Source: a virus (lineage: Duplodnaviria > Heunggongvirae > Uroviricota > Caudoviricetes). Taken from it: 25,384 bases of DNA. The position numbers and the translations under genes are program-made. Where the stretch lies: IMG/VR virus record IMGVR_UViG_2718218100_000015; one strand, given 5' to 3'. Position 1 is the first letter of the stretch, and each line of letters begins with the position of its first letter. A model generated the notes under the pieces. The model did not search any database and was not told where the DNA came from. It saw nothing but the letters and a program-made list of their open reading frames with translations. Positions 7,692 through 25,384 of the stretch are shown piece after piece.

Positions 7692-7696
7692 TATTA

Positions 7697-7969
7697 ATGG
7701 CACTTAAATGTCCCGAATGCGGTACGACGGCACACGCCAGAACCTCCGCCTATGAAGCACCATCGGTTAAACGCTCATGGTATCAGTGCCAGAATCTTGA
7801 ATGTTCCTACACATTTACCGCACTGGAAAGTGTGGATACGATAATCATGAAGCCCCGGCGCAATGAACAGGAATCAGAGAAAGCACAAATGCCGGAAAAA
7901 CAACAGCAAACTCTCAATCGCTATGGCTCCGCGTCAAAGCTGTCAAGCCGTCAGCAAATTCCTGTCTGA
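7697..7969 (+). CDS. Ogr/Delta-family zinc-finger late transcription activator (90 aa)
   Basis: CPECGTTAHARTS...YQCQNLECSYTF is the Ogr/Delta C4 zinc-finger signature; GGAG RBS at 7685-7688. Confidence 0.85.
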   Translation: MALKCPECGTTAHARTSAYEAPSVKRSWYQCQNLECSYTFTALESVDTIIMKPRRNEQESEKAQMPEKQQQTLNRYGSASKLSSRQQIPV

Positions 7970-7990
7970 TTAGCAAAAAAAGCCCACGTA

Positions 7991-8017
7991 ATCCCGGTCC
8001 AGTACTGGGATTTTTTA
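7991..8017 (+). terminator. intrinsic terminator after the late operon
   Basis: Hairpin atcccggt-ccagt-actgggat (8-bp stem with one GU pair) followed by TTTTTT at 8011-8016, 22 nt after the delta stop. Confidence 0.55.
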
Positions 8018-8378
8018 CGCCTTTTCCCTGGCTGGCCTGAGAGCGCATGAGTGCATGTCTATAGCGCATGAAAACGCATGATTCTCATGCACCATTTTTG
8101 ACGCGAAAGCCCTTGTGTGGTGGCTTCTGAGACGATTTGCGGAATGCATGAAAACCAGTCTGTTAAGCGAAGCGAGCAGGCGTGGGGGGCTGCGCGCGCT
8201 AAGGGGTTAGATTATAAAATATCAAACGCCGGTGAGATCCATTATTGTGGAACCACCCGAAGGAAGTGTAGAGGCGAAAGTACCCAAAATAATTTTGCAA
8301 ATTATTTAGAAATGAACTGAGCGCTCGAAACGAAATATAATTTCGAGCACCCCAATTAGCAGTTATATTTTTAATGTA

Positions 8379-8945
8379 TTAAACAGGATAAAAACCAGAG
8401 CTTCCATTCTTATTTAAGTTATGGATTTTATTTGCATCATTAATTTTTATTTGGAACGTCGGACCTTTATTCTCAAGAATTACAATCTGGAAATTATAGT
8501 CCCTTTTGATTAATGCGTGATAAAATGAATCACTGAGACTGACGCTATTAACATCCGATAGAGAACCCCCTCTATCTTTATCAAAGTGCGTCACTAATGG
8601 ACTATCAAGCACAACAAATCCAATGAATGGATTCCCTTTTCTTGATAAAAATTCCGCAAAGCAAATGGTAAATATAGCATGCATTACTGCACGGGTACCT
8701 TTACCAAACATTCCTCGGCGTTTCCCATTGATATTAAAGTCATATGTATCTTCGTCAAATCGCACTTTGTTATCTTTAGAATTTTCAAAATTTATATCAT
8801 TCAAAAAGTCTTGCATCGCTATTTCTATATCATACAAATCAGCTACTGTTAAGGAGTCAAAGTCCTCGGCGGAGTATTTAAGTTCGTCAACATCATCTTC
8901 TTTATCTTGTAATGAAGATAGAATGCTATGTTTTGTGTGATCCAT
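8379..8945 (-). CDS. C-terminal ATPase part of a split SMC/ABC-type ATPase (signature-like FGKGTR, Walker-B-like FVVLDSP), 188 aa
   Basis: ATG at 8943-8945 overlaps the upstream stop (TAATG); FGKGTRAVMHAIF...FIGFVVLDSPLVTHFD resembles ABC signature plus Walker B/D-loop; last gene of the AT-rich cargo operon. Confidence 0.5.
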   Translation of the reverse strand: MDHTKHSILSSLQDKEDDVDELKYSAEDFDSLTVADLYDIEIAMQDFLNDINFENSKDNKVRFDEDTYDFNINGKRRGMFGKGTRAVMHAIFTICFAEFLSRKGNPFIGFVVLDSPLVTHFDKDRGGSLSDVNSVSLSDSFYHALIKRDYNFQIVILENKGPTFQIKINDANKIHNLNKNGSSGFYPV

Positions 8946-9535
8946 TAAAAGATTGTCTTTATATTCATAAAGTGATTCAAGAGATGAATGTATTGTTTTA
9001 TATTTTTATCTTCTAACGTCTTAAAATCACTTTTTTCTGATTGATAAATTTCATTAACATCATTTTTTCTTAACATAATTAATTCATGTTCGCGAACATT
9101 AGATCCGATTGATTCAATTAATCCTTTCAGCTGGCTTTTGATTTTCAATTTTTCTGCATTACACGACAAAAAACAATCATCATATGATATTTCATTTTCT
9201 TTTTTTTGCGGTGTATTACAGAACTCACAATAAATATCTGCAAAATTATTTAAATAGAAATTCGCCTGTGATACAACATCTATTCTTTGTAGATCTATAA
9301 AGTATTGGTCTTTAAGAAGACTAAATCTTTCAATGAGTAATGATAAGTATTTTTCCCTGTCACTGATTGAATATAATTCATCACTTAACTCTTTTAATAA
9401 TTGCTTCTTATCATCAAGTGCATCAACAATACCTTTCAATATATCTTTCGATGATTCAATATCTTGCTCTACTTTCTCAAGTTCTCTTGAAACAATGACT
9501 TGATCATATTCAGGATAAATTAATTGCGCTTTCAA
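8945..9535 (-). CDS. coiled-coil middle segment of the same ATPase (196 aa); no ATG, follows an in-frame TAA
   Basis: In the same frame as ORF 9566-10225, separated only by TAA at 9566-9568 and 10 sense codons; heptad-like charged sequence with CEFC...CFLSC Cys pairs. The ORF-track 'start' is TTG. Confidence 0.45.
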   Translation of the reverse strand: MKAQLIYPEYDQVIVSRELEKVEQDIESSKDILKGIVDALDDKKQLLKELSDELYSISDREKYLSLLIERFSLLKDQYFIDLQRIDVVSQANFYLNNFADIYCEFCNTPQKKENEISYDDCFLSCNAEKLKIKSQLKGLIESIGSNVREHELIMLRKNDVNEIYQSEKSDFKTLEDKNIKQYIHLLNHFMNIKTIF

Positions 9536-9565
9536 TTCCTCATAAATATTTGCAATTTGATTTTT

Positions 9566-10198
9566 TTAAAAATATCTTGCTTTTTTATTTGGTTTTTCTG
9601 CTAAGGAGTTAGTATCATCTCTCTGAGTTAAAAGGAATTTAAATTCAGACTTTCTTTTTGTCTCCTCGCTAGGAATATCAGAAAGAATTAACGACTTCTC
9701 AGTTAACACTCTTAATTCATCAATATAAAAAAATTCAAAAACATTATTAAGATTAAATTTATGAAGAGTATTACTTAAGTTTGTTCTTACTTTAGCCTCT
9801 TTGAAATTCAACCTACCATAAAAGTATGATGAAAAACTCTTTTTAGACGAAGCACTTTTGGAAAAAACCATCAACAGATTAGCTTCACTAACATTTTCAA
9901 TGCTCGAATCATATAATCTGTAATGGGCGCTATCCTGAAGAGACCTCTCAATTGTCATTACCCTACCTTGAAAATTAAATTCCAGATAGGCTAAATCATA
10001 ACCTTGAGCATGATCGATATCTTTATTTTTTAGTTTTTCACTCCCTAATAAATATCGAATCAAATAATATATGTATGTTTTTCCAGAGTCAGAACCACCA
10101 TATAAAATAGTCAATTTAGAACCAAATTCAATTATAGCATCTAATTTATTGAATCCGGTTACCTTTATTTTTCTGAACGTAAAAAAATTGTCATTCAT
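9566..10198 (-). CDS. N-terminal Walker-A part of SMC/ABC-type ATPase (LmuB-like), terminated by in-frame TAA
   Basis: ATG at 10196-10198 (MNDNFFTFRKIKVTGF...), Walker A ILYGGSDSGKTY at residues 32-41; ends at TAA 9566-9568 with the reading frame continuing downstream. Confidence 0.55.
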   Translation of the reverse strand: MNDNFFTFRKIKVTGFNKLDAIIEFGSKLTILYGGSDSGKTYIYYLIRYLLGSEKLKNKDIDHAQGYDLAYLEFNFQGRVMTIERSLQDSAHYRLYDSSIENVSEANLLMVFSKSASSKKSFSSYFYGRLNFKEAKVRTNLSNTLHKFNLNNVFEFFYIDELRVLTEKSLILSDIPSEETKRKSEFKFLLTQRDDTNSLAEKPNKKARYF

Positions 10199-10649
10199 AA
10201 TTAAATTCCATATCATATTTGCCAATTTTATTTTTTATAATTGATTGCAACTGCTCATCAGGAATATCACTATATAACTTAACCACCAAATTTATATTAT
10301 GCTCCATCTGCGCAACATATTCATTATGTAGAGAATTTGTAAATGCATATGTTTTTTCAGAAGCTTTATATACAAAACCACGATGTGTATAAATTTTTGA
10401 GGCTAGTTCATAGCCTTGCAACAAAGCCAATGATTCTAAAACAATCTCTCGTTTTAGGGCTAACTGAGCATCTCTACGGGGTATTGGAGGATGAAGACTA
10501 ATCTCTTCAGGTAAAAAATCCTTAAGATTTACTAAAATAAAATCAAAACAAATAAGCCGTTCAAGGCTTAATGAAGAAGGATAAATAGCGACGAGCACTT
10601 TCGCCATTCGACATGCCACTTCTAAACTTGAATTATAAATTCTAACCAT
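10191..10649 (-). CDS. small hypothetical protein (152 aa) of the cargo operon (LmuC-like position)
   Basis: ATG at 10647-10649 overlaps the stop of the upstream ORF (TAATG); stop overlaps the start of the ATPase gene; no recognisable motif. Confidence 0.45.
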   Translation of the reverse strand: MVRIYNSSLEVACRMAKVLVAIYPSSLSLERLICFDFILVNLKDFLPEEISLHPPIPRRDAQLALKREIVLESLALLQGYELASKIYTHRGFVYKASEKTYAFTNSLHNEYVAQMEHNINLVVKLYSDIPDEQLQSIIKNKIGKYDMEFNYE

Positions 10650-11266
10650 TATCTCACCGTCCAAATTACTTCACCATCATTAACCAAATGATGGCATATT
10701 CCTTTTTTATCATTTGCTTCACATATTTTTGATAGTACTGAATGTGCAATTGGTGTCAGAACAGCCTGCTTCAAGACTGCATTACACCTAATAAATGCAT
10801 AATTATGGTCTTCATAAAAGACGGGTTCAATTGAAGATGAAATGTAACATTTCAATGCTTTGAATACATCATCTTTAAATACTTCGCGGACAAAAACCTC
10901 AAGCGAAGATGCAAAATAAAAATCATTTCTACTATTATTAAAGTGTCGTCTGTATGGATCATCAAGCTCTAAGAAAGAACTATAAGTTTTATTTCCATGC
11001 TCTGAATAGGCTTGAAGCAGTGCATTAACATATACAGACTCTTTTTTTGAATTGTATGTTGGAATTTCATTTGGAGGGATTCTCACGACATACAGCTCGT
11101 TAAAGTACTTAAAATAAAGGTGTGTATTTGCAATATCATTTAAAATCAATGATAAGGGTAGAGAGTAAAAAATACTAAAATCAAAATCCTCAATATATTT
11201 TTTTATTTCATCATCTAATGGAATATCAATCTTTTTAGTTATTTTTTTGAAATTGCTGAATCCCAT
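10649..11266 (-). CDS. C-terminal portion (205 aa) of putative effector; probably the same gene as 11239-11655 after a frameshift
   Basis: Overlaps the upstream ORF by 28 nt around an A7 run (T7 at 11242-11248 on the plus strand); the two frames differ by 1. Confidence 0.45.
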   Translation of the reverse strand: MGFSNFKKITKKIDIPLDDEIKKYIEDFDFSIFYSLPLSLILNDIANTHLYFKYFNELYVVRIPPNEIPTYNSKKESVYVNALLQAYSEHGNKTYSSFLELDDPYRRHFNNSRNDFYFASSLEVFVREVFKDDVFKALKCYISSSIEPVFYEDHNYAFIRCNAVLKQAVLTPIAHSVLSKICEANDKKGICHHLVNDGEVIWTVR

Positions 11267-11655
11267 GAATCAAGGACTGCTTTTTTAAGCTCGTTTTTAT
11301 TTTTCAATAAATTAGAAAATGTAGTAGATAAATCATAGGGTGCCACAAAAAAGTACTTCTGAGGGATGGGATAATCACCATTCAGAGTAAAATAGATAAG
11401 TTTTCCAAACTCAACTACAACATCAGAGAACCCTAAACTTTTTTTGTACAGTTTGCATTGATAATTATCCCAAGAATAACCTTCTACGTTAGGATCCGAT
11501 TTATATCCAACAACGTCTCTACCTTTATCTCCAGCTCCTCCCAAACGTTCGCTCCACGGGTAATCATCTGATTTACAGACAATAAGCCAATCATGGACAA
11601 ATACCTCCCATTGTTCATCATCCCATGTCAATATTTCCGAAAGTGGTTGAGACAC
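11239..11655 (-). CDS. N-terminal portion (138 aa) of putative effector with Mrr/Cap4-like PD-(D/E)xK nuclease signature
   Basis: GGAGDKGRDVVGY...NYQCKLYKK fits the D-x-G-x-D ... Q-x-K pattern of Mrr-type restriction-endonuclease folds; first gene after the integrase in the cargo slot. Confidence 0.5.
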   Translation of the reverse strand: MSQPLSEILTWDDEQWEVFVHDWLIVCKSDDYPWSERLGGAGDKGRDVVGYKSDPNVEGYSWDNYQCKLYKKSLGFSDVVVEFGKLIYFTLNGDYPIPQKYFFVAPYDLSTTFSNLLKNKNELKKAVLDSWDSAISKK

Positions 11656-11658
11656 AAA

Positions 11659-12840
11659 TTAACTCCTTTTTAGTCTTTCAAATATCAAATTACTGTACCA
11701 GTCCATCATAGACTTCCTTCCACTAAAATATTGAGCATGGTTATAAGTCCCCCTAATAGAATTTTTATCTACATGAGCCAACTGGATTTCAATCCAAGCA
11801 CTCTCAAAACCTTGCTCATGCAGGATTGTAGAAAGGGTATGACGAAAACCATGTCCAGTGACTTTTCCTCCATACCCAATACGCTTAATGGCTTGATTTA
11901 TACTCGCTTCGCTCATTGGCCTATTCGGATCGTTCCGCCCTGGAAAAACATAACGATAGTTCCCTGTCATGATCTTGAGTTCATTGAGTAAATCTACCGC
12001 TTGAGATGATAAGGGCACAAGATGTGGCCTACGCATTTTCATCCTTTCAGCAGGAATTTCCCAAATAGCGTTATCCAGATCAAATTCTTGCCATAATGCC
12101 GCGCGTAATTCGATGGTTCTCACACCCGTAATCATCAGTAATTTCGTGGCTATCTGGACAAGCTTACTCCCGGAGTAACCCTCTAAGGCACGTAGAAAAT
12201 CAGGTATCTCATCAGCTTTTAGGAATGGGAAATGATTGGATTGGTGTACTTCGAGAGCGCTGGAGAGCTCAGCCGCAGGATTGTACTCCGCCCTACCCGT
12301 TGCAATTGCGTAGCGAAACACTTCGGAGCAACGCTGCCGCACTTTGCGCATTTTCTCCAACGCACCACGTTTCTCAATTTTACGCAGAACGTTCAGCAGC
12401 TCTAGCGGTTTAATCTCTCCCACAGGCCTTGTTCCGACATAAGGAAAAATGTCGTTCTTAAACGCTTCCATGATGTCTGATGCATATCCCGCCGACCATT
12501 TAGCAGATTTAAGTTGATGCCACTCTCTGGCTATCTTTTCGAAGGCGTTCTCTGACTCTGTTTGCATAGCTAGCTTTTGCTCTTTTCGAACCTCACTAGG
12601 GTTCTTTCCTTCTGCCACAAGTTTTCGAGCTTCATCACGACGGGAACGAGCATCGGCAAGGGTGATCGTTGGGTAAACACCAAGCGAGATCATTTTGGGT
12701 TTGCCGGCATAGCGATAGCGGAACCGCCAACTCTTGCTTCCATTAGGTTCTATAAGTAATGACAACCCTAGCCCATCTCCAAATGTATAGGCTTTAGCTT
12801 CAGGCTTAGCGCGGCGAATCTGCATATCGTTTAAAGGCAT
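11659..12840 (-). CDS. int: P4-type tyrosine integrase (393 aa)
   Basis: ATG at 12838-12840 (MPLNDMQIRRAKPEAKAYTFGDG...); catalytic region HGFRHTLSTILHEQG ... IRGTYNH; lies 160 bp downstream of a tRNA-Thr 3' fragment in the same orientation. Confidence 0.9.
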   Translation of the reverse strand: MPLNDMQIRRAKPEAKAYTFGDGLGLSLLIEPNGSKSWRFRYRYAGKPKMISLGVYPTITLADARSRRDEARKLVAEGKNPSEVRKEQKLAMQTESENAFEKIAREWHQLKSAKWSAGYASDIMEAFKNDIFPYVGTRPVGEIKPLELLNVLRKIEKRGALEKMRKVRQRCSEVFRYAIATGRAEYNPAAELSSALEVHQSNHFPFLKADEIPDFLRALEGYSGSKLVQIATKLLMITGVRTIELRAALWQEFDLDNAIWEIPAERMKMRRPHLVPLSSQAVDLLNELKIMTGNYRYVFPGRNDPNRPMSEASINQAIKRIGYGGKVTGHGFRHTLSTILHEQGFESAWIEIQLAHVDKNSIRGTYNHAQYFSGRKSMMDWYSNLIFERLKRS

Positions 12841-13002
12841 GTGTATAGGAATCCAGACCGAACAGGAACATATACACAATCCTATACACATTCAGTACCG
12901 GATTCTACTGGATGGTTACGGACTACTATGGACTTAAAAGAATAAAAAATGTTATAAATCAGAGATTTTATGGACTAATACGGACGTTTGAGGAAGTTGA
13001 GA

Positions 13003-13048
13003 TGGTGCCGATAATAGGAGTCGAACCTACGACCTTCGCATTACGAAT
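13003..13048 (-). other. 3' fragment (about 46 nt) of tRNA-Thr(CGU), thrW-like; att-site remnant, 5' half absent
   Basis: Reverse complement reads ATTCGTAATGCGAAGGTCGTAGGTTCGACTCCTATTATCGGCACCA (anticodon loop through CCA end); sequence beyond 13048 does not continue as D-arm or acceptor stem. Confidence 0.75.
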
Positions 13049-13249
13049 TATAAGAATCCGCTTCTAATTCAAAGCATTACCCCATCAACACTGCGCTCAC
13101 ACGTCCCACCACATCAAAACATGTAAAGCCTTGCAAGCCATTGCGAGGCCTTATGTGTCTCAGTTTTGTCCCACCTTGTATTACGACTTGCATAGCCAAT
13201 GAAGATAAACGTGACGACAAACGGCGCAGCAGTCTTCTTTTCTTTCACG

Positions 13250-13795
13250 ACTTCTCCAGCATGCATACCTTTCTGCCATGACTGAAGTGAATGCCTGTTA
13301 TGAGCAAGGATTGGCCCAGATGAATCGCCCTGGACTGTTGCGATCGTGAAGCCATAGACTGGGCCGCAAGCACGGGAGGTTACGATAAAGCGACAGTGCA
13401 GGATGTCATGTTAGGAGCGATAGAAAAACGCTTTGGCGATAAAGTACCGGAACAGTCCATCCAGTGGCTGACAGATAACGGTTCAGCGTATAGAGCGCAT
13501 GAAACACGGCAGTTCGCCAGAGAGTTGAATCTGGAGCCCTGCACAACGGCAATCAGCAGTCCTCAGAGTAATGGAATTGCAGAAAGGTTCGTGAAAACGA
13601 TGAAGGAAGACTACATCGCGTTCATGCCGAAACCGAATGTAAGAACGGCATTGCATAATCTTGCAGTGGCGATCGAACATTACAATGAAAACCATCCGCA
13701 CAGTGCGTTGGGTTATCGCTCTCCGCGAGAATATCGACGTCAGCGGGTAACGTTAACTTAAGATACCCCCCCTGTCTGGAAATAAGGGGGCAAGA
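13250..13795 (+). mobile_element. IS2-group (IS3 family) insertion sequence remnant, right-end portion only
   Basis: Encodes a transposase C-terminus resembling IS2 OrfB; terminal sequence tgtctggaaataaggggg at about 13773-13792 resembles the IS2 right end; left boundary approximate. Confidence 0.6.
13321..13761 (+). pseudogene. IS2-like transposase OrfB, C-terminal fragment (DDE/rve domain tail)
   Basis: Frame reads [35 protein letters not shown]...[25 protein letters not shown]...[20 protein letters not shown]...[19 protein letters not shown]; upstream frame closed at 13321. Confidence 0.7.
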
Positions 13796-13802
13796 ACAAT
13801 GA

Positions 13803-14546
13803 TCAGATTCCCTGGTGAGTAAGAATTTTACTTTCTGAACTCCTCTGAGAGTATTGACTTGGAGAAACACCAAAATAACGTCTAAATACATAAGTAAAGT
13901 ATGAGACACTGGCATAACCACAGACCTTAGCTACTTTACTAATAGGATAACAACGAGTGCTGAGTAAATATTCAGCCATTTGCATCCTCTCATCAAGTAT
14001 GATCTTACTGAATGATACCCCCTCTTCTTTCAATTTCCTCTTTAGTAAACTTTCGCTGAGATATAATCTTGATGATATATCCTTAAGACGCCATGGTGCA
14101 GATAAATCCGTATGAATAATCGTTTTAACTTTAGCCCCTGTGCTTTTCAAACATCCAAACAGAAATACTCCAAATTGTTTTTCAGAAGAAAATGCAGAGA
14201 GACATGTAAAAGCAATAGACTCATCAAAAATTTCTATGTATTCAGCACAGTGATTAGCCCAACTAATTAATCCTTTAATTAAACTGAAGTCAGCAAAGTT
14301 TATTTTTAAATAAGATGGATATTCCCTACAATCAGAAATATCCCTTAAGTTATTAGCTTTCAAATAGCGACTAATAAACTCAGCGCCAAAATCCGCCACT
14401 ATCACTCTTTCAGGATATGTCAGGAAAAAATCTCTAGAGCTAGAGTCGACAAGTACAGATGAACCTCTCTCCAGAAACACACTCTCTTTTCCGAAATAAA
14501 CATCAAAGGACTCCAAAATCAATATAACTGAACATGTAGTTGCCAT
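13803..14546 (-). CDS. AraC-family transcriptional regulator (247 aa), AT-rich, Rns/AggR-like
   Basis: C-terminal HTH_AraC region LSESLLKRKLKEEGVSFSKIILDERMQMAEYLL...ISKVAKVCGYASVSYFTYVFRRYFGVSPSQY; low GC with a long AT-rich upstream region. Confidence 0.75.
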   Translation of the reverse strand: MATTCSVILILESFDVYFGKESVFLERGSSVLVDSSSRDFFLTYPERVIVADFGAEFISRYLKANNLRDISDCREYPSYLKINFADFSLIKGLISWANHCAEYIEIFDESIAFTCLSAFSSEKQFGVFLFGCLKSTGAKVKTIIHTDLSAPWRLKDISSRLYLSESLLKRKLKEEGVSFSKIILDERMQMAEYLLSTRCYPISKVAKVCGYASVSYFTYVFRRYFGVSPSQYSQRSSESKILTHQGI

Positions 14547-15128
14547 ATCATCCCCCCAATTTAACTGAAACCAGGATGAAGTATATGTATATAAAGTTCA
14601 CTTTGCCAAACTTCAGTATAAAAAACCACTAAAAATAGGGTGTGATAAAAAATACCGTAACAATAAAGCAAAGGATTATAAATTCCGTTACAGTTACAAA
14701 TGATACTCAAGAAACAATTCCTTAGGAAAAACTTATTTACAGCCAATAAGTAAGACACTTATATGATATCAAGTTTTCATAAAACATAACTAGGCTAAAT
14801 AGCTGCGCCTAATACCGCTACACTTTTGCCAGCCCATGTTTGCCTCCGGGTATTGACCCCTTCTCTACGCAACTTCAGTTCCCACCACCAACTTTGCGGC
14901 AGCTTTGTAGGATCAATGTCTAAAAGAATAATGGTGACCGATAAGAAAACGACTGAATAACTGCAGATTTTCGCTCAAAACCTTCCTGTCAGATCCATAG
15001 CGAATCAAGTGCTGAATGTCACAGTATCGAACAGAAAACAGTGACGATCTAACCCTTCAAGAATATTCTACGATTGTTCTGTTTAGGAAAAGCAAGACGG
15101 GAAGTCGGGAGATAAGTCATTGATAAAG

Positions 15129-15190
15129 TGGCGGAGAGAGGGGGATTTGAACCCCCGGTAGAGTTGCCCCTACTCCGGTTTTCGAGACCG
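15129..15190 (-). other. 3' fragment (about 62 nt) of tRNA-Ser(CGA), serU-like; att-site remnant, 5' part absent
   Basis: Reverse complement reads CGGTCTCGAAAACCGGAGTAGGGGCAACTCTACCGGGGGTTCAAATCCCCCTCTCTCCGCCA (anticodon loop, long variable arm, T-arm, CCA); upstream sequence does not continue as tRNA. Confidence 0.75.
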
Positions 15191-15273
15191 ACCCGATCAT
15201 CAAACGAAACATAAAATTAGCTCACATTATGAGGAAAGGTATCTTTTTGCGCTATGTAAATTCAAAGGGTTAG

Positions 15274-16143
<870 letters not shown>

Positions 16144-16200
16144 ATCTTCAAGTGGTAAGCATAAACCGCAGCACGATCTTGCATACGACGTGCTACGGTT

Positions 16201-16755
16201 TCATTTATCTCCGGCCGGAAACTTCTTATACAGTGTCGATACACCAACATCATAGATGATCGCTACCTTCTGGCGAGGAATTCCTGCTGCAATTAATCGT
16301 CCGGCCTGCGCCCATTGTTCTGGTGTAAGTTTGGGACGACGTCCACCAATTCGTCCCTGTGCGCGAGCAGCTTCCAGTCCAGCTTTTGTTCGTTCAACAA
16401 TCAGTTCTCGTTCCATTTCAGCCAGGGCCCCCATCACATGAAAGAAAAAGCGCCCCATTGGGGTACTGGTATCAATAGCATCCGTCAGGCTGCGAAAATT
16501 AACGCCACGTTCGCGCAACTCCTCAACCAGAATGACCAGATGCCGCATACTGCGCCCCAGCCGATCCAGTTTCCAGACAACCAGAGTGTCACCTGCCGAT
16601 AATGTCCTGAGCAGTTTTTTCAGTCCCGGCCTTTCGGACTTTGTACCGCTTATCTTGTCTTCAAAAATCAGCTCGCATCCTGCACAGTTCAGCGCATTAC
16701 GTTGTAGATCTGTGTTCTGGTCATTTGTTGACACACGTACATAGCCAATAAGCAT
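16201..16755 (-). CDS. pin: Pin/Hin/Gin-family serine DNA invertase (184 aa)
   Basis: MLIGYVRVSTNDQNTDLQRNAL... with catalytic Ser in VRVST and a C-terminal HTH; very close to e14 Pin as recalled; adjacent to the invertible segment. Confidence 0.9.
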   Translation of the reverse strand: MLIGYVRVSTNDQNTDLQRNALNCAGCELIFEDKISGTKSERPGLKKLLRTLSAGDTLVVWKLDRLGRSMRHLVILVEELRERGVNFRSLTDAIDTSTPMGRFFFHVMGALAEMERELIVERTKAGLEAARAQGRIGGRRPKLTPEQWAQAGRLIAAGIPRQKVAIIYDVGVSTLYKKFPAGDK

Positions 16756-16821
16756 GGTAGATCTCCCTGACAAAAGCAGGAATGATGCCATTTGCTCGTT
16801 ATTTCTGCATTTTCATAAACG

Positions 16822-16852
16822 TTGGTTTGGGAGAAGGTGCTCCAGCTATTGG
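16822..16852. repeat. left crossover site (inverted repeat) of the Pin invertible segment
   Basis: ttggtttgggagaaggtgctccagctattgg is the inverted complement of 18574-18603 with one single-base indel; lies 67 bp upstream of the pin start. Confidence 0.6.
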
Positions 16853-17067
16853 CGTTCCGTTCTTCTGGCGTCCGCTGCAATGCCAAATACTGTAATCGAC
16901 AGCTGGTCCTGTATGGTGTTTTGAAGTTCAACGGCGCGAAATTCTCTGCCACTGATTATCCTGTGCTGGCGAAAGTGTTTCCTTCGCTGGTATTACCTGA
17001 AGCCGCGGTGATTTCATTCGTATCTGGGATGACGGGCGAGGTGCAGACGGTGGTCGCGAATTATTAA
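16822..17067 (+). pseudogene. alternative tail-fibre C-terminal variable module (silent orientation)
   Basis: Frame starting inside the left crossover site encodes ...KFNGAKFSATDYPVLAKVFPSLVLPEAAV..., typical of a tail-fibre tip; would be joined to the constant part after inversion. Confidence 0.4.
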
Positions 17068-17284
17068 GCTGGCAGGCAGCTACAAACTTTTCTCAGTTTG
17101 CCGGAATATAGGCGAAGGTGCGGGACACGCAATTAACTTTCATGATGGCATCGCCGGAAATCAGCCAGGATTTTCACGATTTAATTTCACCAGTAACTCT
17201 GTGGGTGATGGTGTGAATTTTGTTGCAGTCAGACGCGAATATTGCATTTAACTTTCTGGTGAGGCTAAATAATGAAACCTGTTT

Positions 17285-17793
17285 TTGATGAAAATGGCTG
17301 GCTACAGTGCCGGGCGATATGCGTTGTTTTATTATGATGCTGAAACATCTGAGTATACGGGCTGGTCTGATGAATATATTAATACTGGCGTAAGTATGCC
17401 GCCTGTTCCACTGGTATTGACCTGGCGAAAACATTCGGGAAGAGTGGCAGTATTTACAGGTAAGGATGGAGCCATGAAGAAGACCATCGCAATGAGACTG
17501 TTTACTCAATCGAAATGGCGCAGCTGTTACAGTGGATTATATCGGTGCCATCAAAGACGGTTATGTCACGATTTCACCGTTAACGCCATACGATAAATGG
17601 ATGGTGAGAAATGGTGACAGACACTGAGGCACAACACAGTGCCGCAGTAGACGCGGCAGAAGCACAGCGCCAATCACTGATTGATGCAGCAATGGCTTCC
17701 ATTAGTCTGATTCAGCTGAAGTTACAGCCGGACGGAACTGACTCAGGCAGAACAACCCGACTTAACGCCGTGCTGGATTACATTGACGCGTGA
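17285..17793 (+). pseudogene. tail fibre assembly (Tfa-like) gene, frameshifted
   Basis: N-terminal ...FYYDAETSEYTGWSDEYINTG... and C-terminal ...EAQHSAAVDAAEAQRQSLIDAAMASISLIQLKL...TTRLNAVLDYIDA lie in different frames; the expected ...APD(V/I)IW... tail is in yet another frame downstream. Confidence 0.5.
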
Positions 17794-17835
17794 CGGCAAC
17801 AGATACCAGCACGCGCCGGATGTCATCTGGCTGAA

Positions 17836-18247
17836 CTGCCGGAGCGTAGGCCATTCAATATCTGGCGCACCGGAAGTATCGACCAGCTCCAGTGCGTCCA
17901 GATAATCCAGCCACAATTATATTGCGTCAGTTCGTCACCTTTCAGACGACCAATAGCCGCTTTACGGGCCATTGCTTACTGTTCATGTATTCGTTGGCCT
18001 GGTTAATTAGTAGCTGTCTTTCTGATTCAGTAATTTCAATAAGCTCTTCATGCGTGGTGAATATCTGCCACGCAGGCAGCCATCATCTCCGGCAATACGG
18101 ATTTTCCTTGTGCGGTTCAGCCATAAACTCACTGATAATATTTGATTACTTCCTTAGCGTCTGATAAATCCCATCCCTCTGATTATATTTATCAATCATA
18201 TCACAGGAAAAAGCATTATGCCTTGCGCTATAAACATATTCGTCCAT
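17836..18247 (-). pseudogene. second, convergent Tfa-like gene (minus strand), degenerate
   Basis: Manual minus-strand translation gives MDEYVYSARHNAF... from an ATG at 18245-18247 and a C-terminal WLDYLDALELVDTSGAPDIEWP at 17836-17913, with frame breaks between. Confidence 0.3.
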
Positions 18248-18465
18248 ATAAATCACCCTGAATAAAATTACTCACCACAGCCCACCAACTGTAATTCATC
18301 GATACCGTGTCGCTGGTTGATGACGTTCTGTAAGCAGAATTAAAGCGTTAACGTTGGCCTTCTGCAGTCATCACGAACCTCGCCAGCGCCTAAAGGCGCA
18401 CCGCCATCACCAGAATGAGTAAGCATGGCGCAGTCCGCTTTTTGGGAAAGGATGCTGAATGTAAT

Positions 18466-19250
18466 TCATTGTGCGTCGATAATGTCGGCGTAACCGCACA
18501 CGACCATATTGCAGGATTTCCCGTTGAATTCACCATCATACCACTGGCAAAGAGGCATGCCGGACGACCCGCCCAATAGCTGGAGCCCTTCTCCCAAACC
18601 AAGGTTTTGAAGAGCCGTTTTCACCGTGCCGTCCGATTTGATATCGCCAAACGGATTCTTGCGGCTCAGGTATTCAACAGCAAACCCCGATCCCAGCAAT
18701 TCAACAAAACCGGGCAGATCACCATTATCAAGCACATCCCGTTGCGTTTTATCACTTACAAACTGGGCCAGAGCTGCAGCAATAAAGCTGGCCTGCCGAA
18801 TAACCTTATTGACTTGCGCACTGGATGCTTTCCCTGCTGTAAATCCGGATATAAGCGCAGGCAACGCTTCCCATTCCTCCTGCGACATAACATTGGCATT
18901 TCGATCAGTTGCAAACGCTTTAAAGTCATTTTTCGCCATCAGAGTAATACTCCCCATGCCCCTACATCAAAACCACTGATGAATTCGTTATCCATATCAA
19001 AACCAAAAAATTTAGAGCCTTCCGATGGAGTTTCCACCGAAGGTGTTTCAATGCCCCCCGCCCATACCCCGGCGGCTTTTACTGTTAGATACCCCTGTTT
19101 AATTGCCGCAATTAACTCACGCGATACATCTGAAATATCAGTATCAGGAAAGACCCAGACCGATATCGTCATGTCCTGGTTATCGATGTTGGCGATCCGA
19201 CGCATCTGCTCACGGTCAAAGTTAACCATCTGTGCGGCGATGTTTTTCAT
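18466..19250 (-). pseudogene. tail-fibre constant-region fragment fused to the first 21 codons of lambda-type P; internal frame break near 18939-18957
   Basis: ORF 18939-19250 starts MKNIAAQMVNFDREQMRRIAN (lambda P N-terminus) then switches to unrelated sequence; ORF 18466-18957 reads through the right crossover site. Confidence 0.45.
18574..18603. repeat. right crossover site (inverted repeat) of the Pin invertible segment
   Basis: ccaatagctggagcccttctcccaaaccaa; inverted copy of 16822-16852; lies inside the tail-fibre constant-region reading frame (...[12 protein letters not shown]...). Confidence 0.6.
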
Positions 19251-20169
19251 AAATCCACCCCGTAAATCCAGTCAGTGTTTGTCAGGTCGAGTTTTGGTTT
19301 GCTGGCTGTCACGCCTGCCTGTTGCTTGTTACGGTTGATTTCGAGCTGGGTCCACTTGTCGCGGAGTTTGGCCGGACTCAGCACGTTACCGGACCAGAAG
19401 TTGTCCTGGCAGGCCCAGCGGAAAAGCACACACATATCGCGGTGGTTACGTCCGTCACGTTCACGCATCAGGCGGATATCGTTAGCCCACCCAGCAAAAT
19501 TCGGTTTTCTGGCTGATGGCGCGATGGTCTTCACCATGTCAAACATCCACTCTGCGGCGGTCAGGTCTTCTGCTGTTCCCCACTTGCTGCCGCTCTGAAT
19601 TGCAGCATCCGGTTTAACCACAGAAAGATCGTTTTCTGGCTGGTCAGAGGATTCGCCAGAATTCTCGGACGAATAATCTTTTCTTTTTTCTTTTGTAATA
19701 GTGTCTTTTGTGTCCCCCTGTTTTGAGGGATAGCAATCCCCCAATTTGAGGGATAGCAATCCCCCAATTTGAGGGATGTTTTATCCCTCGTTTTAGGGGA
19801 TTTTCCCTCGTTTTGAGGGATACACCATTCTGAGATGTTTTTATTTGGTCCAAACATGCCGCCTTGCTGCTTGATAATATTCATTCTGACGAGTTCTAAC
19901 TTGGCTTCATTGCACCGTTTGACAGGTAACTTTGTAATCTCGCTAAGTTGAGAATCGGTGATTCTGTCCATTGGTTTATTCCACCCATAGGTTTTACGCA
20001 GAATGGCAAGCAGCACTTTAAACTGTCGCTTGGTCAGATCTGCGCCCGAATAAGCCTCAAGCAGCATATTTGATAGTCTGGCGTAACCATCATCGAGATC
20101 TGCCACATTACGCTCCTGTCCGGCAAAGTTACCTCTGCCGAAGTTGAGTATTTTTGCTGTATTTGTCAT
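19247..20169 (-). pseudogene. O: lambda-type replication initiator O, split by a frameshift inside the ori iterons
   Basis: N-terminal ORF MTNTAKILNFGRGNFAGQERNVADLDDGYARL... and C-terminal ORF ...NFWSGNVLSPAKLRDKWTQLEINRNKQQAGVTASKPKLDLTNTDWIYGVDL match lambda O; frames differ across 19742-19787. Confidence 0.85.
19721..19830. repeat. ori-lambda iterons (O-binding sites) with an extra tandem 23-bp copy
   Basis: Five iteron-like units on the minus strand where lambda has four; 19742-19764 and 19765-19787 are identical 23-mers (agcaatcccccaatttgagggat); AT-rich tract follows at about 19670-19720. Confidence 0.8.
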
Positions 20170-20179
20170 AATGACTCCT

Positions 20180-20256
20180 GTTGATAGATCCAGTAATGAC
20201 CTCAGAACTCCATCTGGATTTGTTCAGAACGCTCGGTTGCCGCCGGGCGTTTTTTA
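20180..20256 (+). ncRNA. oop: oop antisense RNA (about 77 nt)
   Basis: gttgatagatccagtaatgacc...gctcggttgccgccgggcgtttttt matches the recalled lambda oop RNA, ending in a GC hairpin plus T6; antisense to the cII 3' end. Confidence 0.7.
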
Positions 20257-20495
20257 TTGGTGAGAATCGCAGCAACTTGTCGCGCCAATCGAGCCATGTC
20301 GTCGTCAACGCCCCCCCATTCAAGAACAGCAAGCAGCATTGAGAACTTTGGAATCCAGTCTCTCTTCCACCTGCTGATCTGCGACTTATCAACTCCCACA
20401 GCTTCCGCTGTCTTCTCAGTTCCAAGCATTGCGATTTTGTTAAGCAACGCACTCTCGATTCGTAGAGCCTCGTTGCGTTTGTTTGCACGAACCAT
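20202..20495 (-). CDS. cII: lambda-type CII transcriptional activator (97 aa)
   Basis: MVRANKRNEALRIESALLNKIAMLGTEKTAEAVGVDKSQISRWKRDWIPKFSMLLAVLEWG...; ATG at 20493-20495. Confidence 0.9.
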   Translation of the reverse strand: MVRANKRNEALRIESALLNKIAMLGTEKTAEAVGVDKSQISRWKRDWIPKFSMLLAVLEWGGVDDDMARLARQVAAILTNKKRPAATERSEQIQMEF

Positions 20496-20574
20496 ATGTA
20501 AGTATTTCCTTAGATAACAATTGATTGAATGTATGCAAATAAATGCATACACCATAGGTGTGGTTTAATTGGAT

Positions 20575-20589
20575 GCCCTTTTTCAGGGC
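20575..20589 (-). promoter_or_regulatory. nutR boxB hairpin
   Basis: gccctttttcagggc (rc GCCCTGAAAAAGGGC) between cro and cII. Confidence 0.6.
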
Positions 20590-20613
20590 TGGAATGTGTA
20601 AGAGCGGGGTTAT

Positions 20614-20823
<210 letters not shown>

Positions 20824-20840
20824 TTAGTACATGCAACCAT

Positions 20841-20904
20841 TATCACCGCCAGAGGTAAAGTAGTCAACACGCGCGGTGTTAGATATTTATCCCTTGCGGT
20901 GATA
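20841..20904. promoter_or_regulatory. OR1-OR2-OR3 operators with divergent PR/PRM promoters
   Basis: 17-bp sites tatcaccgccagaggta (20841-20857), caacacgcgcggtgtta (20865-20881), tatcccttgcggtgata (20888-20904) between cro and cI. Confidence 0.85.
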
Positions 20905-20911
20905 GATTTAA

Positions 20912-21628
<717 letters not shown>

Positions 21629-21755
21629 TAGGAAGTAAGTTTTATGTTGACGGCACAGTCAACTTGGCATAGATTAATTAAACCAAGCCCAGCCCCGTTC
21701 GCAGACAATTGTTAATATCTGCATAACGGCTCTGGGCTATTTTTTTGGGACTCTT

Positions 21756-22612
21756 ATGAAGAAAGCAGCAATTTTAATTGATGCGGGTTTTTTCATGCAG
21801 CGTGTTCATGCTACGCATCGTAAACACTTCGCCGAGCATGAACTGACTGTGCAATGCATAATGAAAGTAATATGGTCAATGGTTCTTTCCCATCTTAATG
21901 GAAAACGTCAATCACAAGAACGTAGGGAACCGCTTGAGCTTTATAGAATTTACTTCTATGACTGTCCACCACTCGACATTCAAACACGCCTTCCACTTCC
22001 TGAGCCTGGCAATAAGACGCCTGGTCGCAAGAATTTCAAACTCGAAAAATCATATATTCTGAGAACGGAGCTGCATGAAGAGTTAAGAAAAACTCGAAAA
22101 ACAGCCTTAAGATTAGGGAATCTTGTTGATAATAAGCGATGGCAACTAACTACATTCTCCCTTGATGCTCTGATGAAAGGAACGAAAAAATGGGATGAAC
22201 TGACAAATGATGTTTTTACTATGACATCAAACAAAAACAAGTTGATATCAAGCTAGGGATGGATATCACGACTTTAGCTTATGAAAAACTTGTTGATGTA
22301 ATTGTCCTTGTTGCTGGGGACTCAGACTTTGTGCCTGCCGCCAAACACGCCAGAATTAAAGGTATTGATTTTATTCTTGATCCACTAAGACAGAATGTTA
22401 CCCCATCACTGTCAGAGCACATTGATGGAGTTCAGTCATACAGCTTGATATCAGGACTTGCCGATGCTTTACATGTTGAGCCAGACCCGGCACCTGACTG
22501 GTGGGAAGATCGAAAAAAAGGCAAGCCTAGAGGAAAAAACAATAGCGGTAAACGCAGGTATGGAAACACTCAAGCTGAGTCTGCAAAGAAACATCAAAGA
22601 AATAAACGATAA
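21756..22612 (+). pseudogene. NYN/LabA-like (PIN-fold) domain protein in the position of lambda rexAB; split into 166-aa and 117-aa ORFs by a frameshift near a T5 run
   Basis: ORF1 begins MKKAAILIDAGFF; the second frame reads ...KQVDIKLGMDITTLAYEKLVDVIVLVAGDSDFVPAAKHARIKGIDFIL; the frames overlap across 22211-22256 with T5 at 22213-22217. Confidence 0.55.
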
Positions 22613-22733
22613 TCCCATCAACCCGGCCACCGAGCCGGGTTTTCTTTGCCTCTCGATCGCCCCACCTAAAAACACATAATGAACCGCCCCGGAAATCCTG
22701 GAGACTAAACTCCCTGAGAAAGAGGTAAACAGG

Positions 22734-23060
22734 ATGACTAAAAATACTCGTTTTTCCCCCGAAGTCCGTCAGCGGGCGATTCGTATGGTTCTGGAAAGTC
22801 AGGATGAATATGACTCACAGTGGGCGGCAATTTGTTCCATTGCCCCAAAGATTGGCTGTACGCCGGAGACTCTGCGTGTCTGGGTTCGCCAGCATGAGCG
22901 GGATACCGGGGGCGGTGATGGTGGGCTCACCAGCGCTGAACGTCAGCGTCTGAAAGAGCTGGAACGTGAAAATCGTGAACTGCGCCGCAGTAACGATATC
23001 CTTCGCCAGGCTTCCGCTTATTTTGCGAAGGCGGAGTTCGACCGCCTCTGGAAAAAATGA
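22734..23060 (+). CDS. IS629 transposase OrfA (108 aa)
   Basis: [60 protein letters not shown]... with HTH and leucine-zipper-like C-terminus. Confidence 0.85.
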
Positions 23061-23947
23061 TGCCACTGCTGGATAAGCTGCGTGAGCAGTACGGGGTCGG
23101 ACCGGTATGCAGCGAACTGCATATTGCCCCGTCAACGTATTACCATTGTCAGCAACAGCGACATCATCCGGATAAACGCAGTGCCCGTGCGCAGCACGAC
23201 GACTGGCTGAAGAGAGAGATACAGCGCGTATACGATGAAAATCATCAGGTGTACGGTGTGCGTAAAGTCTGGCGTCAGTTGTTACGGGAAGGAATCAGGG
23301 TGGCCAGATGTACAGTGGCACGTCTCATGGCGGTTATGGGACTTGCCGGTGTTCTCCGGGGTAAAAAGGTCCGTACGACCATCAGCCGGAAAGCCGTTGC
23401 CGCAGGCGACCGCGTAAACCGTCAGTTCGTGGCAGAACGACCTGACCAGCTGTGGGTGGCTGATTTTACTTACGTCAGCACATGGCAGGGCTTCGTCTAT
23501 GTGGCGTTTATCATTGATGTGTTTGCCGGATACATCGTGGGGTGGCGGGTCTCATCGTCTATGGAAACGACATTCGTGCTGGATGCGCTGGAGCAGGCGT
23601 TGTGGGCCCGTCGTCCGTCTGGCACCATCCATCACAGCGATAAAGGCTCTCAGTATGTGTCACTGGCCTATACGGAGCGACTAAAAGAAGCCGGATTACT
23701 GGCATCAACAGGGAGTACAGGCGACTCGTATGACAACGCGATGGCTGAGAGCATCAATGGTCTTTACAAAGCGGAGGTAATACACCGTAAGAGCTGGAAA
23801 AACCGTGCAGAAGTGGAACTGGCCACACTAACGTGGGTGGACTGGTATAACAATCGACGATTGCTGGGAAGGCTGGGCCATACTCCTCCGGCAGAAGCAG
23901 AAAAAGCTTATTATGCTTCCATCGGAAACGATGATCTGGCAGCCTGA
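23057..23947 (+). CDS. IS629 transposase OrfB (DDE integrase-like catalytic domain), expressed as OrfAB by -1 frameshift
   Basis: ...[31 protein letters not shown]...[11 protein letters not shown]...[19 protein letters not shown]... shows the D, D, E catalytic spacing; overlaps orfA in the -1 frame. Confidence 0.85.
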
Positions 23948-24115
23948 GTTCACAGATAAAACACTCTCCAGGAAACCCGGGGCGGTTCATAACCAATTGT
24001 ATTTATTTTAAAATTAATAGGTGCAACTCACTAAACAACGCAATTCTGATCTCTCGATCACCTCCCAAGCCACACAACCCTGCAAAAAATAAATCTATAT
24101 AAAAAACATACAGAT

Positions 24116-24178
24116 AACCATCTGCGGTGATAAATTATCTCTGGCGGTGTTGACACAAATACCACTAGCGGTGATACT
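24116..24178 (+). promoter_or_regulatory. OL3-OL2-OL1 operators and pL promoter
   Basis: aaccatctgcggtgata, tatctctggcggtgttg, taccactagcggtgata; -35 ttgaca at 24150-24155 and -10 gatact at 24173-24178. Confidence 0.8.
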
Positions 24179-24217
24179 AAGCACATCAGCAGGACGCACT
24201 AACCACCATGAAGGTGA

Positions 24218-24248
24218 TGCTCTTAAAAATTAAGCCCTGAAGAAGGGC
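24218..24248 (+). promoter_or_regulatory. nutL (boxA tgctcttaa, boxB gccctgaagaagggc)
   Basis: boxA-like 24218-24226 and boxB hairpin 24234-24248 downstream of pL. Confidence 0.7.
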
Positions 24249-24405
24249 AGCATTCAAAGCAGAAGGCTTTGGTGTGTGTGATACGAAACGAAGCATTGGC
24301 CGGAAGTGCGAATCCGGATTAGCAGCCAATGTGCCATTGCGGGGTGTTTTCGTTCAGGACTACGACTCCCACACACAACCAAAGCTAACTAACAGGAGAA
24401 TCCAG

Positions 24406-24465
24406 ATGGATGCACAAACACGCCGCCGCGAACGTCGCGCAGAGAAACAGGCTCAATGGAAAGCA
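24406..24465 (+). pseudogene. N: lambda-type antiterminator N, first 20 codons only
   Basis: [20 protein letters not shown] then the frame reads into unrelated sequence and stops at 24519. Confidence 0.8.
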
Positions 24466-25384
24466 GATCGGATTCTGGCTTCAACATTTCGCAGGAATGC
24501 AACTAAGAGACATTACTGAATCAAAAATTTATTCAGCAATGCAGAAAATGACGAACCGGCGTCATGAGGAAAACTGGAAACTCAGGGCAGAAGCATGCAG
24601 AAAAAAAGGGAAACCTGTTCCAGAATACACGCCAAAACCAGCGTCCGTTGCAACGAAGGCTACGCATCTTTCATTTATAAAGGCCCTGCTAAGAGCCGCA
24701 GAGCGTGAATGGAAAATGCTCGATAAGGCACCAATTATTAAAGTGCCTCAACCAAAGAATAAACGGATCCGCTGGCTGGAGCCCCATGAAGCACAAAGGC
24801 TGATTGATGAATGTCCGGAGCCATTAAAGTCTGTTGTTGAATTTGCACTGGCAACAGGCTTAAGACGCTCGAACATCATCAACCTTGAATGGCAACAAAT
24901 AGATATGCAGCGCCGGGTGGCATGGATAAACCCGGAAGAGAGTAAATCAAACCGCGCAATTGGCGTTGCGCTGAATGATACTGCATGTCGCGTATTGAAA
25001 AAACAAATCGGTAATCATCACCGTTGGGTATTTGTGTACAAGGAAAGCTGTACCAAACCAGACGGAACGAAAGCGCCAACAGTAAGGAAGATGCGGTATG
25101 ACGCAAACACAGCCTGGAAAGCGGCGCTGAGACGGGCTGGTATTGATGATTTCAGATTTCACGACTTGAGACACACCTGGGCAAGTTGGCTGGTTCAAGC
25201 CGGAGTCCCGTTGTCAGTGTTACAGGAAATGGGAGGCTGGGAGTCTATCGAAATGGTTCGTCGATATGCTCACCTTGCACCTAATCACCTTACCGAACAC
25301 GCACGGCAAATAGACTCGATCCTGAACCCATCGGTCCCAAATTTGTCCCAGTCAAAAAATAAGGAAGGTACTAATGATGTGTAA
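24466..25384 (+). pseudogene. int: 5'-truncated lambdoid tyrosine integrase (arm-binding N-terminus missing)
   Basis: From [22 protein letters not shown]... to the end; catalytic motifs RxxR...[11 protein letters not shown]...VRRYAHL present; the ORF-track start at 24410 is an alternate frame of N'. Confidence 0.8.

Follow-up and report, generated by a model that had tools for sequence, protein, structure and literature searches.

Deletion-only frame breaks in a Pin tail-fibre switch of Escherichia coli O157:H7 as probable consensus errors

The genes inside an invertible tail-fibre segment of E. coli O157:H7, which appear broken by frameshifts in the DNA analysed here (the window, 25,384 nucleotides), have very probably not decayed; the frame breaks are best explained as consensus errors that arose because the segment was actively flipping and the sequenced culture contained it both ways round. 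The window is the thrW region of O157:H7 with the prophage remnants Sp1 and Sp2, and the invertible locus is a tail-fibre switch of the Pin type, as in the P segment of e14, located in the lambdoid prophage remnant at thrW ('Sp1' in strain Sakai). The locus is already known, since the Sakai annotation lists 'prophage Sp1' and a pinE DNA-invertase there, and it belongs to the Pin/Gin/Cin family, which has long been known. Searching the literature for CP-933H together with inversion returned nothing.

Anatomy of the switch

The invertase gene, pin, lies on the minus strand at 16201-16755 and encodes an intact protein of 184 aa, identical in the window and in strain 86-24, with no deletion anywhere in the gene. 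The protein has the organization of a Din-family serine invertase, with a resolvase-type N-terminal catalytic domain (Pfam Resolvase, 8e-52) containing the catalytic Ser9 motif YVRVSTNDQ and a C-terminal helix-turn-helix (HTH_7, 1e-15). It is 96.7% identical to K-12 PinE, and its residues 1-181 align end to end with the Mu Gin structure 3UJ3 (E 5e-94). Nucleotides 19-90 of pin (16666-16737, minus strand) are a presumed Fis-dependent recombinational enhancer, judged by position and conservation; they are identical to K-12 pinE at 70 of 72 positions, to cin at 55 and to gin at 54, and the enhancer of Cin is annotated at the corresponding nucleotides, 19-90 of cin, in the P1 record. Fis and this enhancer may take part in inversion at the locus.

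Two inverted 26-bp sites bound the segment; in each of them, imperfect half-sites of 12 bp flank a 2-bp core that is common to both. The pin-proximal site (16810-16835, core 16822-16823) reads TTCTCCCAAACC-AA-CGTTTATGAAAA on the minus strand, matches the pin-side e14 site of K-12 without a difference and has the same position in every clean genome. The fibre-proximal site (18589-18614, plus strand, core 18601-18602), TTCTCCCAAACC-AA-GGTTTTGAAGAG, follows the pattern of Mu gix and P1 cixL and differs from the fibre-side site of e14 at two positions, both in the outer half; it lies within the fibre ORF, where it encodes ..NLGLGE. The 19-nt core pattern TTCTCCCAAACCAASGTTT has exactly two matches in the 25.4 kb, in inverted orientation, where 0.03 would be expected by chance, and two matches occurred in 0 of 100 shuffles. 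The sites are therefore of the hix/gix type, as the first-pass annotation had proposed with a comparison to e14, Mu G and P1 C in mind: they match the e14 sites almost exactly and have the Mu/P1 pattern in common. Its view that inverted repeats flank a segment beside pin, and that the hardware of the switch looks intact, is likewise confirmed. Core to core, the segment spans 16822-18602, in orientation A as in 86-24, and measures 1781 bp here and 1860 bp in clean genomes.

The cargo consists of two fibre C-terminal parts, each with its own tail fibre assembly (Tfa) gene, in convergent arrangement, while the constant N-terminal part of the fibre lies outside the segment. From the pin side come a silent alternative C-terminal part of B type, StfE-like (16818-17272, plus strand; L001 9719-10180), the Tfa chaperone gene for the B-type fibre (TfaE-like; 17272-17849, plus strand), that for the A-type fibre (TfaP-like; 17823-18247, minus strand) and the currently joined C-terminal part of A type with its Gp53-like_C domain (18268-18600, minus strand); these carry 7, 16, 19 and 39 deletions, respectively, which we regard as spurious. 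The constant part (18603-18939, minus strand; about 112 codons beginning with MAKNDF...) has none, and its N-terminus is found from residue 1 also in complete myophages, downstream of the baseplate genes. In clean sequence, the Tfa proteins are 197 aa (Pfam Caudo_TAP 2e-27; 65.5% identical to K-12 TfaE) and 147 aa (Caudo_TAP 3e-30; 53.6% identical to K-12 TfaP). The clean fibres, 236 aa in form A (Gp53-like_C 6e-12) and 264 aa when the constant part is joined to the B-type part (41% identical to K-12 StfE), have residues 1-117 or so in common. In the window itself, the two convergent Tfa-like genes do show the frame breaks first noticed there, being split into short ORFs at 17285-17596 and 17611-17793 (plus strand) and at 17823-17972 and 18007-18132 (minus strand), and one of the two alternative C-terminal modules is indeed in frame with the constant part (ORF 18466-18957, minus strand).

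By analogy with its family, Pin would pair the two 26-bp sites, exchange strands at the central AA/TT and flip the segment of about 1.86 kb. One orientation fuses the 112-codon fibre head to the A-type C-terminus, followed by the 147-aa Tfa, and the other fuses it to the B-type C-terminus, followed by the 197-aa Tfa. The inner half-site, GGTTTGGGAGAA, is common to the two sites and encodes GLGE, which preserves the reading frame whichever way the segment lies.

The surrounding remnant contains cI, cro, cII, a split O gene, fragments of the P gene, the fibre switch and pin; baseplate, tail and head genes are all absent from it at this locus. The fibre gene is an orphan here, joined to the lambda P gene remnant, and a GIY-YIG gene adjoins pin. 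Gene orientation suggests a PR-like promoter ahead of cro, which might also transcribe the fibre gene. ARAGORN found no tRNA in the window, and the tRNA-like sequence at 15120-15181 is therefore only a fragment. Thus the mechanism of the switch is there, but the locus has no evident virion output and no virion or tailocin of its own on which the fibre would be mounted.

A deletion-only pattern bounded by the crossover cores

BLAST alignment of the window with strain 86-24 revealed 79 one-base deletions and no insertion, all at 16868-18587 and thus between the crossover cores, whereas the aligned flank of about 14.6 kb has no indel and few substitutions (deletions in segment versus flank, Fisher p 1.4e-77). 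Deleted bases fall largely in homopolymers: 66 of the 79 are in runs of at least two, and 44 in runs of at least three, which make up 18% of segment bases. Their density climbs towards the right end of the segment. The only mismatches within the segment, five in number, all fall within 18578-18584, and true substitutions are absent.

These mismatches mark a chimeric patch at 18573-18588, CCAATAGCTGGAGC, which represents opposite-orientation sequence with one base missing; clean genomes in orientation A lack it at their right end of the segment. Fourteen nucleotides of it (18573-18586) are the reverse complement of the left end of the segment, and the patch changes the reading at the junction from GAPAIG to GLQLLG. 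Five orientation-B 11-mers occur in the window at the mirrored distance from the end, against 0.19 expected by chance. The window's chimeric fibre protein, tried with two starts, had no exact match among 153 billion gene positions, a result that agrees with an artefact but is weak evidence, as it depends on which start codon the gene caller chose.

The patch also accounts for part of the repeat structure described at first sight. Repeats of about 30 bp with one indel do exist in the window, as a 21-nt pair of arms (16817-16837 and 18587-18607, 95% complementary) followed at a one-base offset by a 14-nt pair (16839-16852 and 18573-18586, 100% complementary); clean genomes of the same lineage, however, have only a 20-nt repeat, with neither the second arm nor the offset, the remainder being created by the patch. 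Invertases of the Hin/Gin family exchange strands at a fixed central 2-bp core, and the P1 record annotates a single crossover position, inside cixL. The suggestion that a one-base difference between the sites would shift the frame according to the crossover point therefore fails, because the indel sits some 14-15 bp into the segment and belongs to the faulty patch. The T missing from the patch is also wrongly missing at the segment's left end in strain Z1833.

Similar damage is present in other assemblies. Z1830, Z1833, JEONG-1266, ERL05-1306 and AUSMDU00002545, with origins in the UK, the USA, New Zealand and Australia, have deletion-only damage in the same segment only, partly at the same positions, and several O157 records with such damage are annotated as 'frameshifted' at this locus in RefSeq. 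AUSMDU00002545 contains 13 orientation-B 11-mers; the other four contain no opposite-orientation k-mers. Over a near-identical flank of about 23 kb, AUSMDU00002545 differs from the window by one 10-bp and one 1-bp indel, the latter in its IS copy, which is annotated as frameshifted, while 267 alignment positions differ inside the segment.

Inversion in the lineage and the origin of the damage

Among complete genomes in RefSeq, 91 carry the segment in orientation A and 123 in orientation B, with the genes intact; the best matches reach 100% identity. In isolates 110 and 107 the flanks are the same, and between the sites a 3170-bp segment with a shared IS1203 insertion is exactly reverse-complemented. 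The breakpoints thus lie at the sites, and the genomes in both orientations, together with isolates differing by an exact inversion, indicate that the switch is active. Such activity is in line with e14: both orientations of the homologous segment are always present in clonal K-12 cultures (PMC4272514), and the inverted orientation makes up about 30% in the wild type (PMC12529663). That the window's own culture likewise held both orientations is suggested by the single 14-nt patch and the error pattern.

On this basis, the damage would have arisen as follows. The sequenced DNA would have contained both orientations, and during long-read consensus building or polishing the minority reads would have been forced onto the draft; they would have left homopolymer-biased one-base deletions across the segment and an opposite-orientation patch at its right end. 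The window probably derives from a long-read assembly, and the exact course of polishing is our reconstruction; for the AUSMDU genomes, PacBio or Nanopore reads were used, in which residual errors are mostly homopolymer indels (PMC8116684). Counting against this account, polishing alone explains neither the steep rightward rise of deletions nor the four damaged assemblies without opposite-orientation k-mers. The literature on consensus damage at loci of mixed orientation yielded indirect matches only.

The first-pass annotation had instead read the cargo as pseudogenized, that is, the strain would have retained the switch, whereas frameshifts would have ruined the two Tfa genes as well as the two fibre C-terminal parts. 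The frame breaks do exist in the window as given, relaxed selection on the fibre genes is plausible in a remnant with no other virion gene, and a real IS1203 insertion interrupts the 197-aa Tfa gene of one lineage. Neutral decay, however, produces mostly substitutions, and both insertions and deletions. The 79 deletions without a single insertion or true substitution in 1.8 kb, next to flanks with no indel, do not show this mixed spectrum, and the damage ends at the crossover cores. Nor is it shared by descent: AUSMDU00002545, the structurally closest assembly, combines near-identical flanks with 267 segment differences, a contrast that descent cannot explain, and deletion-only damage recurs in unrelated assemblies. 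The opposite-orientation patch speaks against decay too, as do the more than 200 genomes from the same clonal lineage in which these genes are intact and 100% identical, so genuine pseudogenization is very improbable and the claim is not upheld.

A consensus artefact might also have another cause, namely the recruitment of reads from paralogous fibre and Tfa genes of other O157 prophages, in which case orientation heterogeneity would be irrelevant. Such paralogues exist, as each O157 genome has 2-6 places similar to a 3.2-kb query. Recruitment should, however, introduce substitutions towards the paralogue alleles, and its limits should follow the boundaries of similarity rather than the two crossover cores; it would also leave unexplained why orientation-B k-mers occur at mirrored positions, both in AUSMDU00002545 and in the window. 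We consider it an improbable source, if a slightly less remote one than true decay. The idea of a generally poor assembly, with indel errors genome-wide and nothing special about the segment, finds its sole support in the segment itself; it is refuted within the window by the flanks, with no one-base indel in about 14.6 kb against 86-24 and only the two flank indels in the 23-kb comparison with AUSMDU00002545. The presence of both orientations in culture is thus the explanation that we strongly favour.

Related switches and meaning

The e14 P segment of K-12 with its PinE, for which PMC4272514 cites Plasterk and van de Putte (1985; see also PMC12529663), has the same order: the fibre head and one site are followed by a C-terminal part and its Tfa, then by the convergently oriented second Tfa and its C-terminal part, and finally by the other site and pin. 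It is of similar size, with 1797 bp between the repeat arms versus 1830 bp in clean O157 genomes. The cargo alleles differ, the Tfa proteins being 54-65% and the fibre C-termini 35-41% identical, and the first 91 residues of the O157 fibre have no BLASTP match to e14 StfP. In addition, pin is next to mcrA in e14 and to the GIY-YIG gene in O157, where the element occupies thrW in a lambdoid remnant without baseplate or tail genes. The Mu G (Gin) and P1 C (Cin) systems share with the O157 locus the recombinase family, the site pattern TTC.....AAACC-NN-GGTTT and alternative S/S′ fibre ends with U/U′ chaperones; the enhancer annotated in P1, near the 5′ end of cin, has the position presumed for one in O157 pin. 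They differ in their segments of 3-4.2 kb, far longer fibre genes and complete viable phages, and the core dinucleotide of Mu is GA whereas that of the O157 sites is AA.

The B form of the fibre (264 aa) is 97% identical to that of the myophages vB_EcoM-683R1, 611R5 and 606R2 (ON470593, ON470588 and ON470579), in which the fibre gene is likewise followed by Tfa, a convergent Tfa and an invertase; in the related phage vB_EcoM-689R6, the invertase is 98.4% identical to O157 Pin. Unlike the remnant, these myophages have the fibre gene after baseplate genes in a complete phage genome of 33-43 kb. A parallel on the side of assembly is the phage tail-protein region of E. coli EC958, where fibre inversion makes different long-read assemblers disagree on orientation for one read set; the difference there is of orientation only, and consensus damage within the segment is not described (PMC8235852).

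Since the switch is intact and flips in more than 200 genomes despite the loss of every other virion gene, the orphan switch might have been kept for the benefit of O157:H7 itself, either as a phase-variable surface or adsorption-blocking factor or as a supply of fibres to other resident prophages, a tentative reading that we think rather unlikely. The StfE2 protein of e14, by which phage T2 is blocked after PinQ/PinE inversion (PMC12529663), offers a precedent for a blocking factor of this kind.

The practical lesson is that genes of an invertible segment can look like pseudogenes in a long-read assembly because inversion has led to consensus errors, and pseudogene counts or inferences of a 'decaying prophage' need checking against other genomes or reads. 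Deletion-only scars between inverted repeats in public long-read assemblies could, in turn, be searched for to reveal segments undergoing inversion in culture. The biological import is small, the locus behaving as expected for its known family, and such damage is, if anything, a sign of an active switch.

Pin, its crossover sites and the reading frame

The pin product has Resolvase and HTH_7 domains, is 96.7% identical to K-12 PinE, and aligns with Mu Gin over 181 residues with the catalytic serine present. The site pattern TTCTCCCAAACCAASGTTT has exactly two matches in the window, in inverted orientation (0.03 expected by chance); a 26-bp pin-side site (16810-16835, core TT at 16822-16823) and a 26-bp fibre-side site (18589-18614, core AA at 18601-18602). 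The former is identical to its e14 counterpart and the latter differs from that of e14 at two outer positions; gix of Mu and cixL of P1 are also of this pattern. Pin domains, similarity to PinE and Gin, and sites of the e14/Mu/P1 pattern thus bear out the first-pass assignment of this locus as a Pin switch, which is itself already known. The predicted enhancer stretch of pin, found by its match to the annotated P1 cin enhancer, is identical to K-12 pinE at 70 of 72 positions.

The fibre ORF is full length and includes the fibre-side site (..QNLGLGE). Invertases of the Hin/Gin type cut at a fixed central dinucleotide. As the two segment ends share their inner half-site, exchange at this point keeps the frame in either orientation, and the suggestion that a one-base difference between the sites would shift the frame depending on the crossover point does not arise.

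The surrounding thrW-region remnant

Full-length matches for 16100-19300 were obtained only in O157:H7 (megablast, RefSeq complete E. coli genomes), and the locus is the thrW region. In strain 86-24, the gene order is a P4-like element, integrase, IS fragment, AraC-family regulator, LEM-3-like GIY-YIG gene and pinE, then the fibre/Tfa block, lambda P gene fragments and a frameshifted O gene, and finally cII, cro, cI, a truncated integrase, tRNA-Thr and proA. The Sakai record annotates the locus as 'prophage Sp1, lambda-like phage' with 'pinE: DNA-invertase'. The remnant contains no virion genes other than the fibre switch, and therefore has a mechanism for host-range switching with no evident virion output; in complete myophages, by contrast, a 264-aa fibre 97% identical to the 264-aa form of this locus is encoded directly after baseplate genes. 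Downstream of a PR-like promoter, the fibre gene is oriented like cro, cII, O and P, and may be controlled by cI.

The lambda-type O replication gene (19247-20169, minus strand) consists of two overlapping ORFs, split within an array of 23-bp iterons (19714-19827). JEONG-1266 has one 23-bp copy fewer and an O protein annotated as intact, so that, in contrast to the segment damage, the O frameshift of most O157 genomes seems to reflect a genuine change in the number of iterons. Directly adjoining pin is the LEM-3-like GIY-YIG domain gene (15370-16143, plus strand; Pfam PF22945, 3e-14); this slot is occupied in e14 by the McrA restriction enzyme, and the gene here possibly encodes another nuclease or a defence function. 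Lying between the P4-like element and the pin region, the stretch 15120-15181 (minus strand) resembles approximately the 3′ 60 nt of a tRNA-Ser; ARAGORN found no complete tRNA there, and it is probably what remains of the attachment site of another integrated element. The P4-like satellite prophage (676-12891), presumably of the Sakai Sp2 type, encodes a primase-helicase, Psu and an Ogr/Delta protein, and harbors C4 antisense RNA (4902-4989) and isrK RNA (5058-5135); beside its integrase, a cluster annotated as 'ABC-three component system' with an AAA ATPase (8379-11655) may be defence cargo. A region of ~1.9 kb (22103-23992), missing in 86-24 and present in the Australian genome AUSMDU00002545, contains an NYN-domain gene and an IS1203/IS629 copy with an ALIL frameshifting pseudoknot (23015-23131). 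The sole multi-base flank difference from AUSMDU00002545 is a 10-bp indel (AGTGAATAGT) at 6214 in the P4-like element.

Deletions and an inverted patch within the segment

As given in the first-pass annotation, the window does contain the inverted repeats, a segment of ~1.75 kb, Tfa ORFs with breaks and an in-frame junction in the fibre gene. However, the best matches of 16100-19300 are just 97.4-97.7% identical, and the matched records are 60-79 bases longer than the query, because of deletions revealed by base-by-base comparison with 86-24 as reference. Outside the segment, the aligned window (7100-22103 and 23992-25384) shows no indels and a handful of substitutions, whereas inside it 79 bases are deleted, none is inserted, and five mismatches fall in one small patch (18578-18584). 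The deletions span 16868 to 18587 and therefore all lie between the two crossover cores (79 of 1781 segment positions versus 0 of 14616 flank positions; p = 1.4e-77, Fisher's exact test). Sixty-six of the deleted bases are in runs of at least two identical bases and 44 in runs of at least three, which make up 18% of segment bases. The unexpressed C-terminal part has 7 deletions, the 197-aa Tfa gene 16, the 147-aa Tfa gene 19 and the expressed C-terminal part 39; against 86-24, none was found in pin, the constant fibre part or any flanking gene.

In O157 records with an undamaged segment, the inverted repeat is just 20 nt (AAACGTTGGTTTGGGAGAAG). Their right segment end reads ...CCCACATCCCGTTTTGCCGCTTCTCCC, that of the window ...CCCGCCCAATAGCTGGAGCCCTTCTCCC, and CCAATAGCTGGAGC matches the left end in reverse complement, as expected for the right end in the other orientation. 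Five 11-mers of undamaged orientation B (the flipped form), missing from undamaged orientation A (that of 86-24 and the window), occur in the window at the mirrored distance from the segment end (0.19 expected by chance). The second arm of the longer repeat first described, with its 'one indel', is therefore a product of this opposite-orientation patch. The patch lacks a T (GGTGCTCC read as GGGCTCC), an error that is also found at the left end in Z1833. The junction protein of the window corresponds to GAPAIG of the B form with a one-base shift, followed by damaged A-form sequence.

Intact cargo, active inversion and the probable origin of the damage

The undamaged orientation-A sequence matches 91 genomes at 80% query coverage or more, and its in-silico flipped version 123, including Sakai, EDL933, TW14359 and EC4115; the best matches are 100% identical in both cases. 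RefSeq annotates these genomes with two intact Tfa proteins (197 and 147 aa) and an intact fibre, which has 236 aa in orientation A and 264 aa in B. Over the 12.6 kb compared, the flanks of cattle isolates 110 and 107 are identical. The two share an IS1203 inside the 197-aa Tfa gene (loci L011 and L012, 4711-7908), and the 3170-bp segment of one is the exact reverse complement of that of the other; inversion has therefore happened very recently within one clone. This IS1203 is a genuine disruption of a cargo gene in one cattle lineage, and the exact inversion of the enlarged segment shows that Pin tolerates a longer one.

Five further O157 records have deletion-only damage in the segment and nothing comparable outside it; Z1830 and Z1833 (UK), JEONG-1266 (USA), ERL05-1306 (New Zealand) and AUSMDU00002545 lack 16, 20, 19, 6 and 229 segment bases, respectively. 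Deletion positions are often common to these unrelated assemblies (12 of 16 in Z1830 are those of the window). AUSMDU00002545, the structure nearest the window, is colinear over 25 kb with flanks differing by few substitutions and two indels, but 267 alignment positions differ inside the segment, and it contains 13 orientation-B k-mers of the same kind with a left end chimeric in mirror-image fashion. Such near-identical flanks with 267 segment differences cannot arise by descent, whereas independent consensus errors can give rise to them. Decay of the Tfa cargo, as first proposed, is thus not supported, given damage that is deletion-only, core-bounded, homopolymer-rich and found in other assemblies, and intact genes in 91 A and 123 B genomes.

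The homologous e14 segment is always found in both orientations in clonal K-12 cultures (PMC4272514), with ~30% of a wild-type culture inverted (PMC12529663), and a DNA preparation of mixed orientation is therefore expected. The AUSMDU assemblies derive from PacBio RS-II or Nanopore data, and the errors that persist in long-read sequence are mostly homopolymer indels (PMC8116684). Building a long-read consensus on such a mixed population is very probably the source of the damage here. PGAP marks the fibre and Tfa genes as 'frameshifted' pseudogenes in NZ_CP062713, NZ_CP062705, NZ_CP014314 and NZ_CP045975, and such RefSeq calls at the O157 locus seem to stem from this consensus artefact. The biology of this locus is otherwise of low interest, and the main value of the case is the caution it gives for pseudogene calls inside invertible segments.
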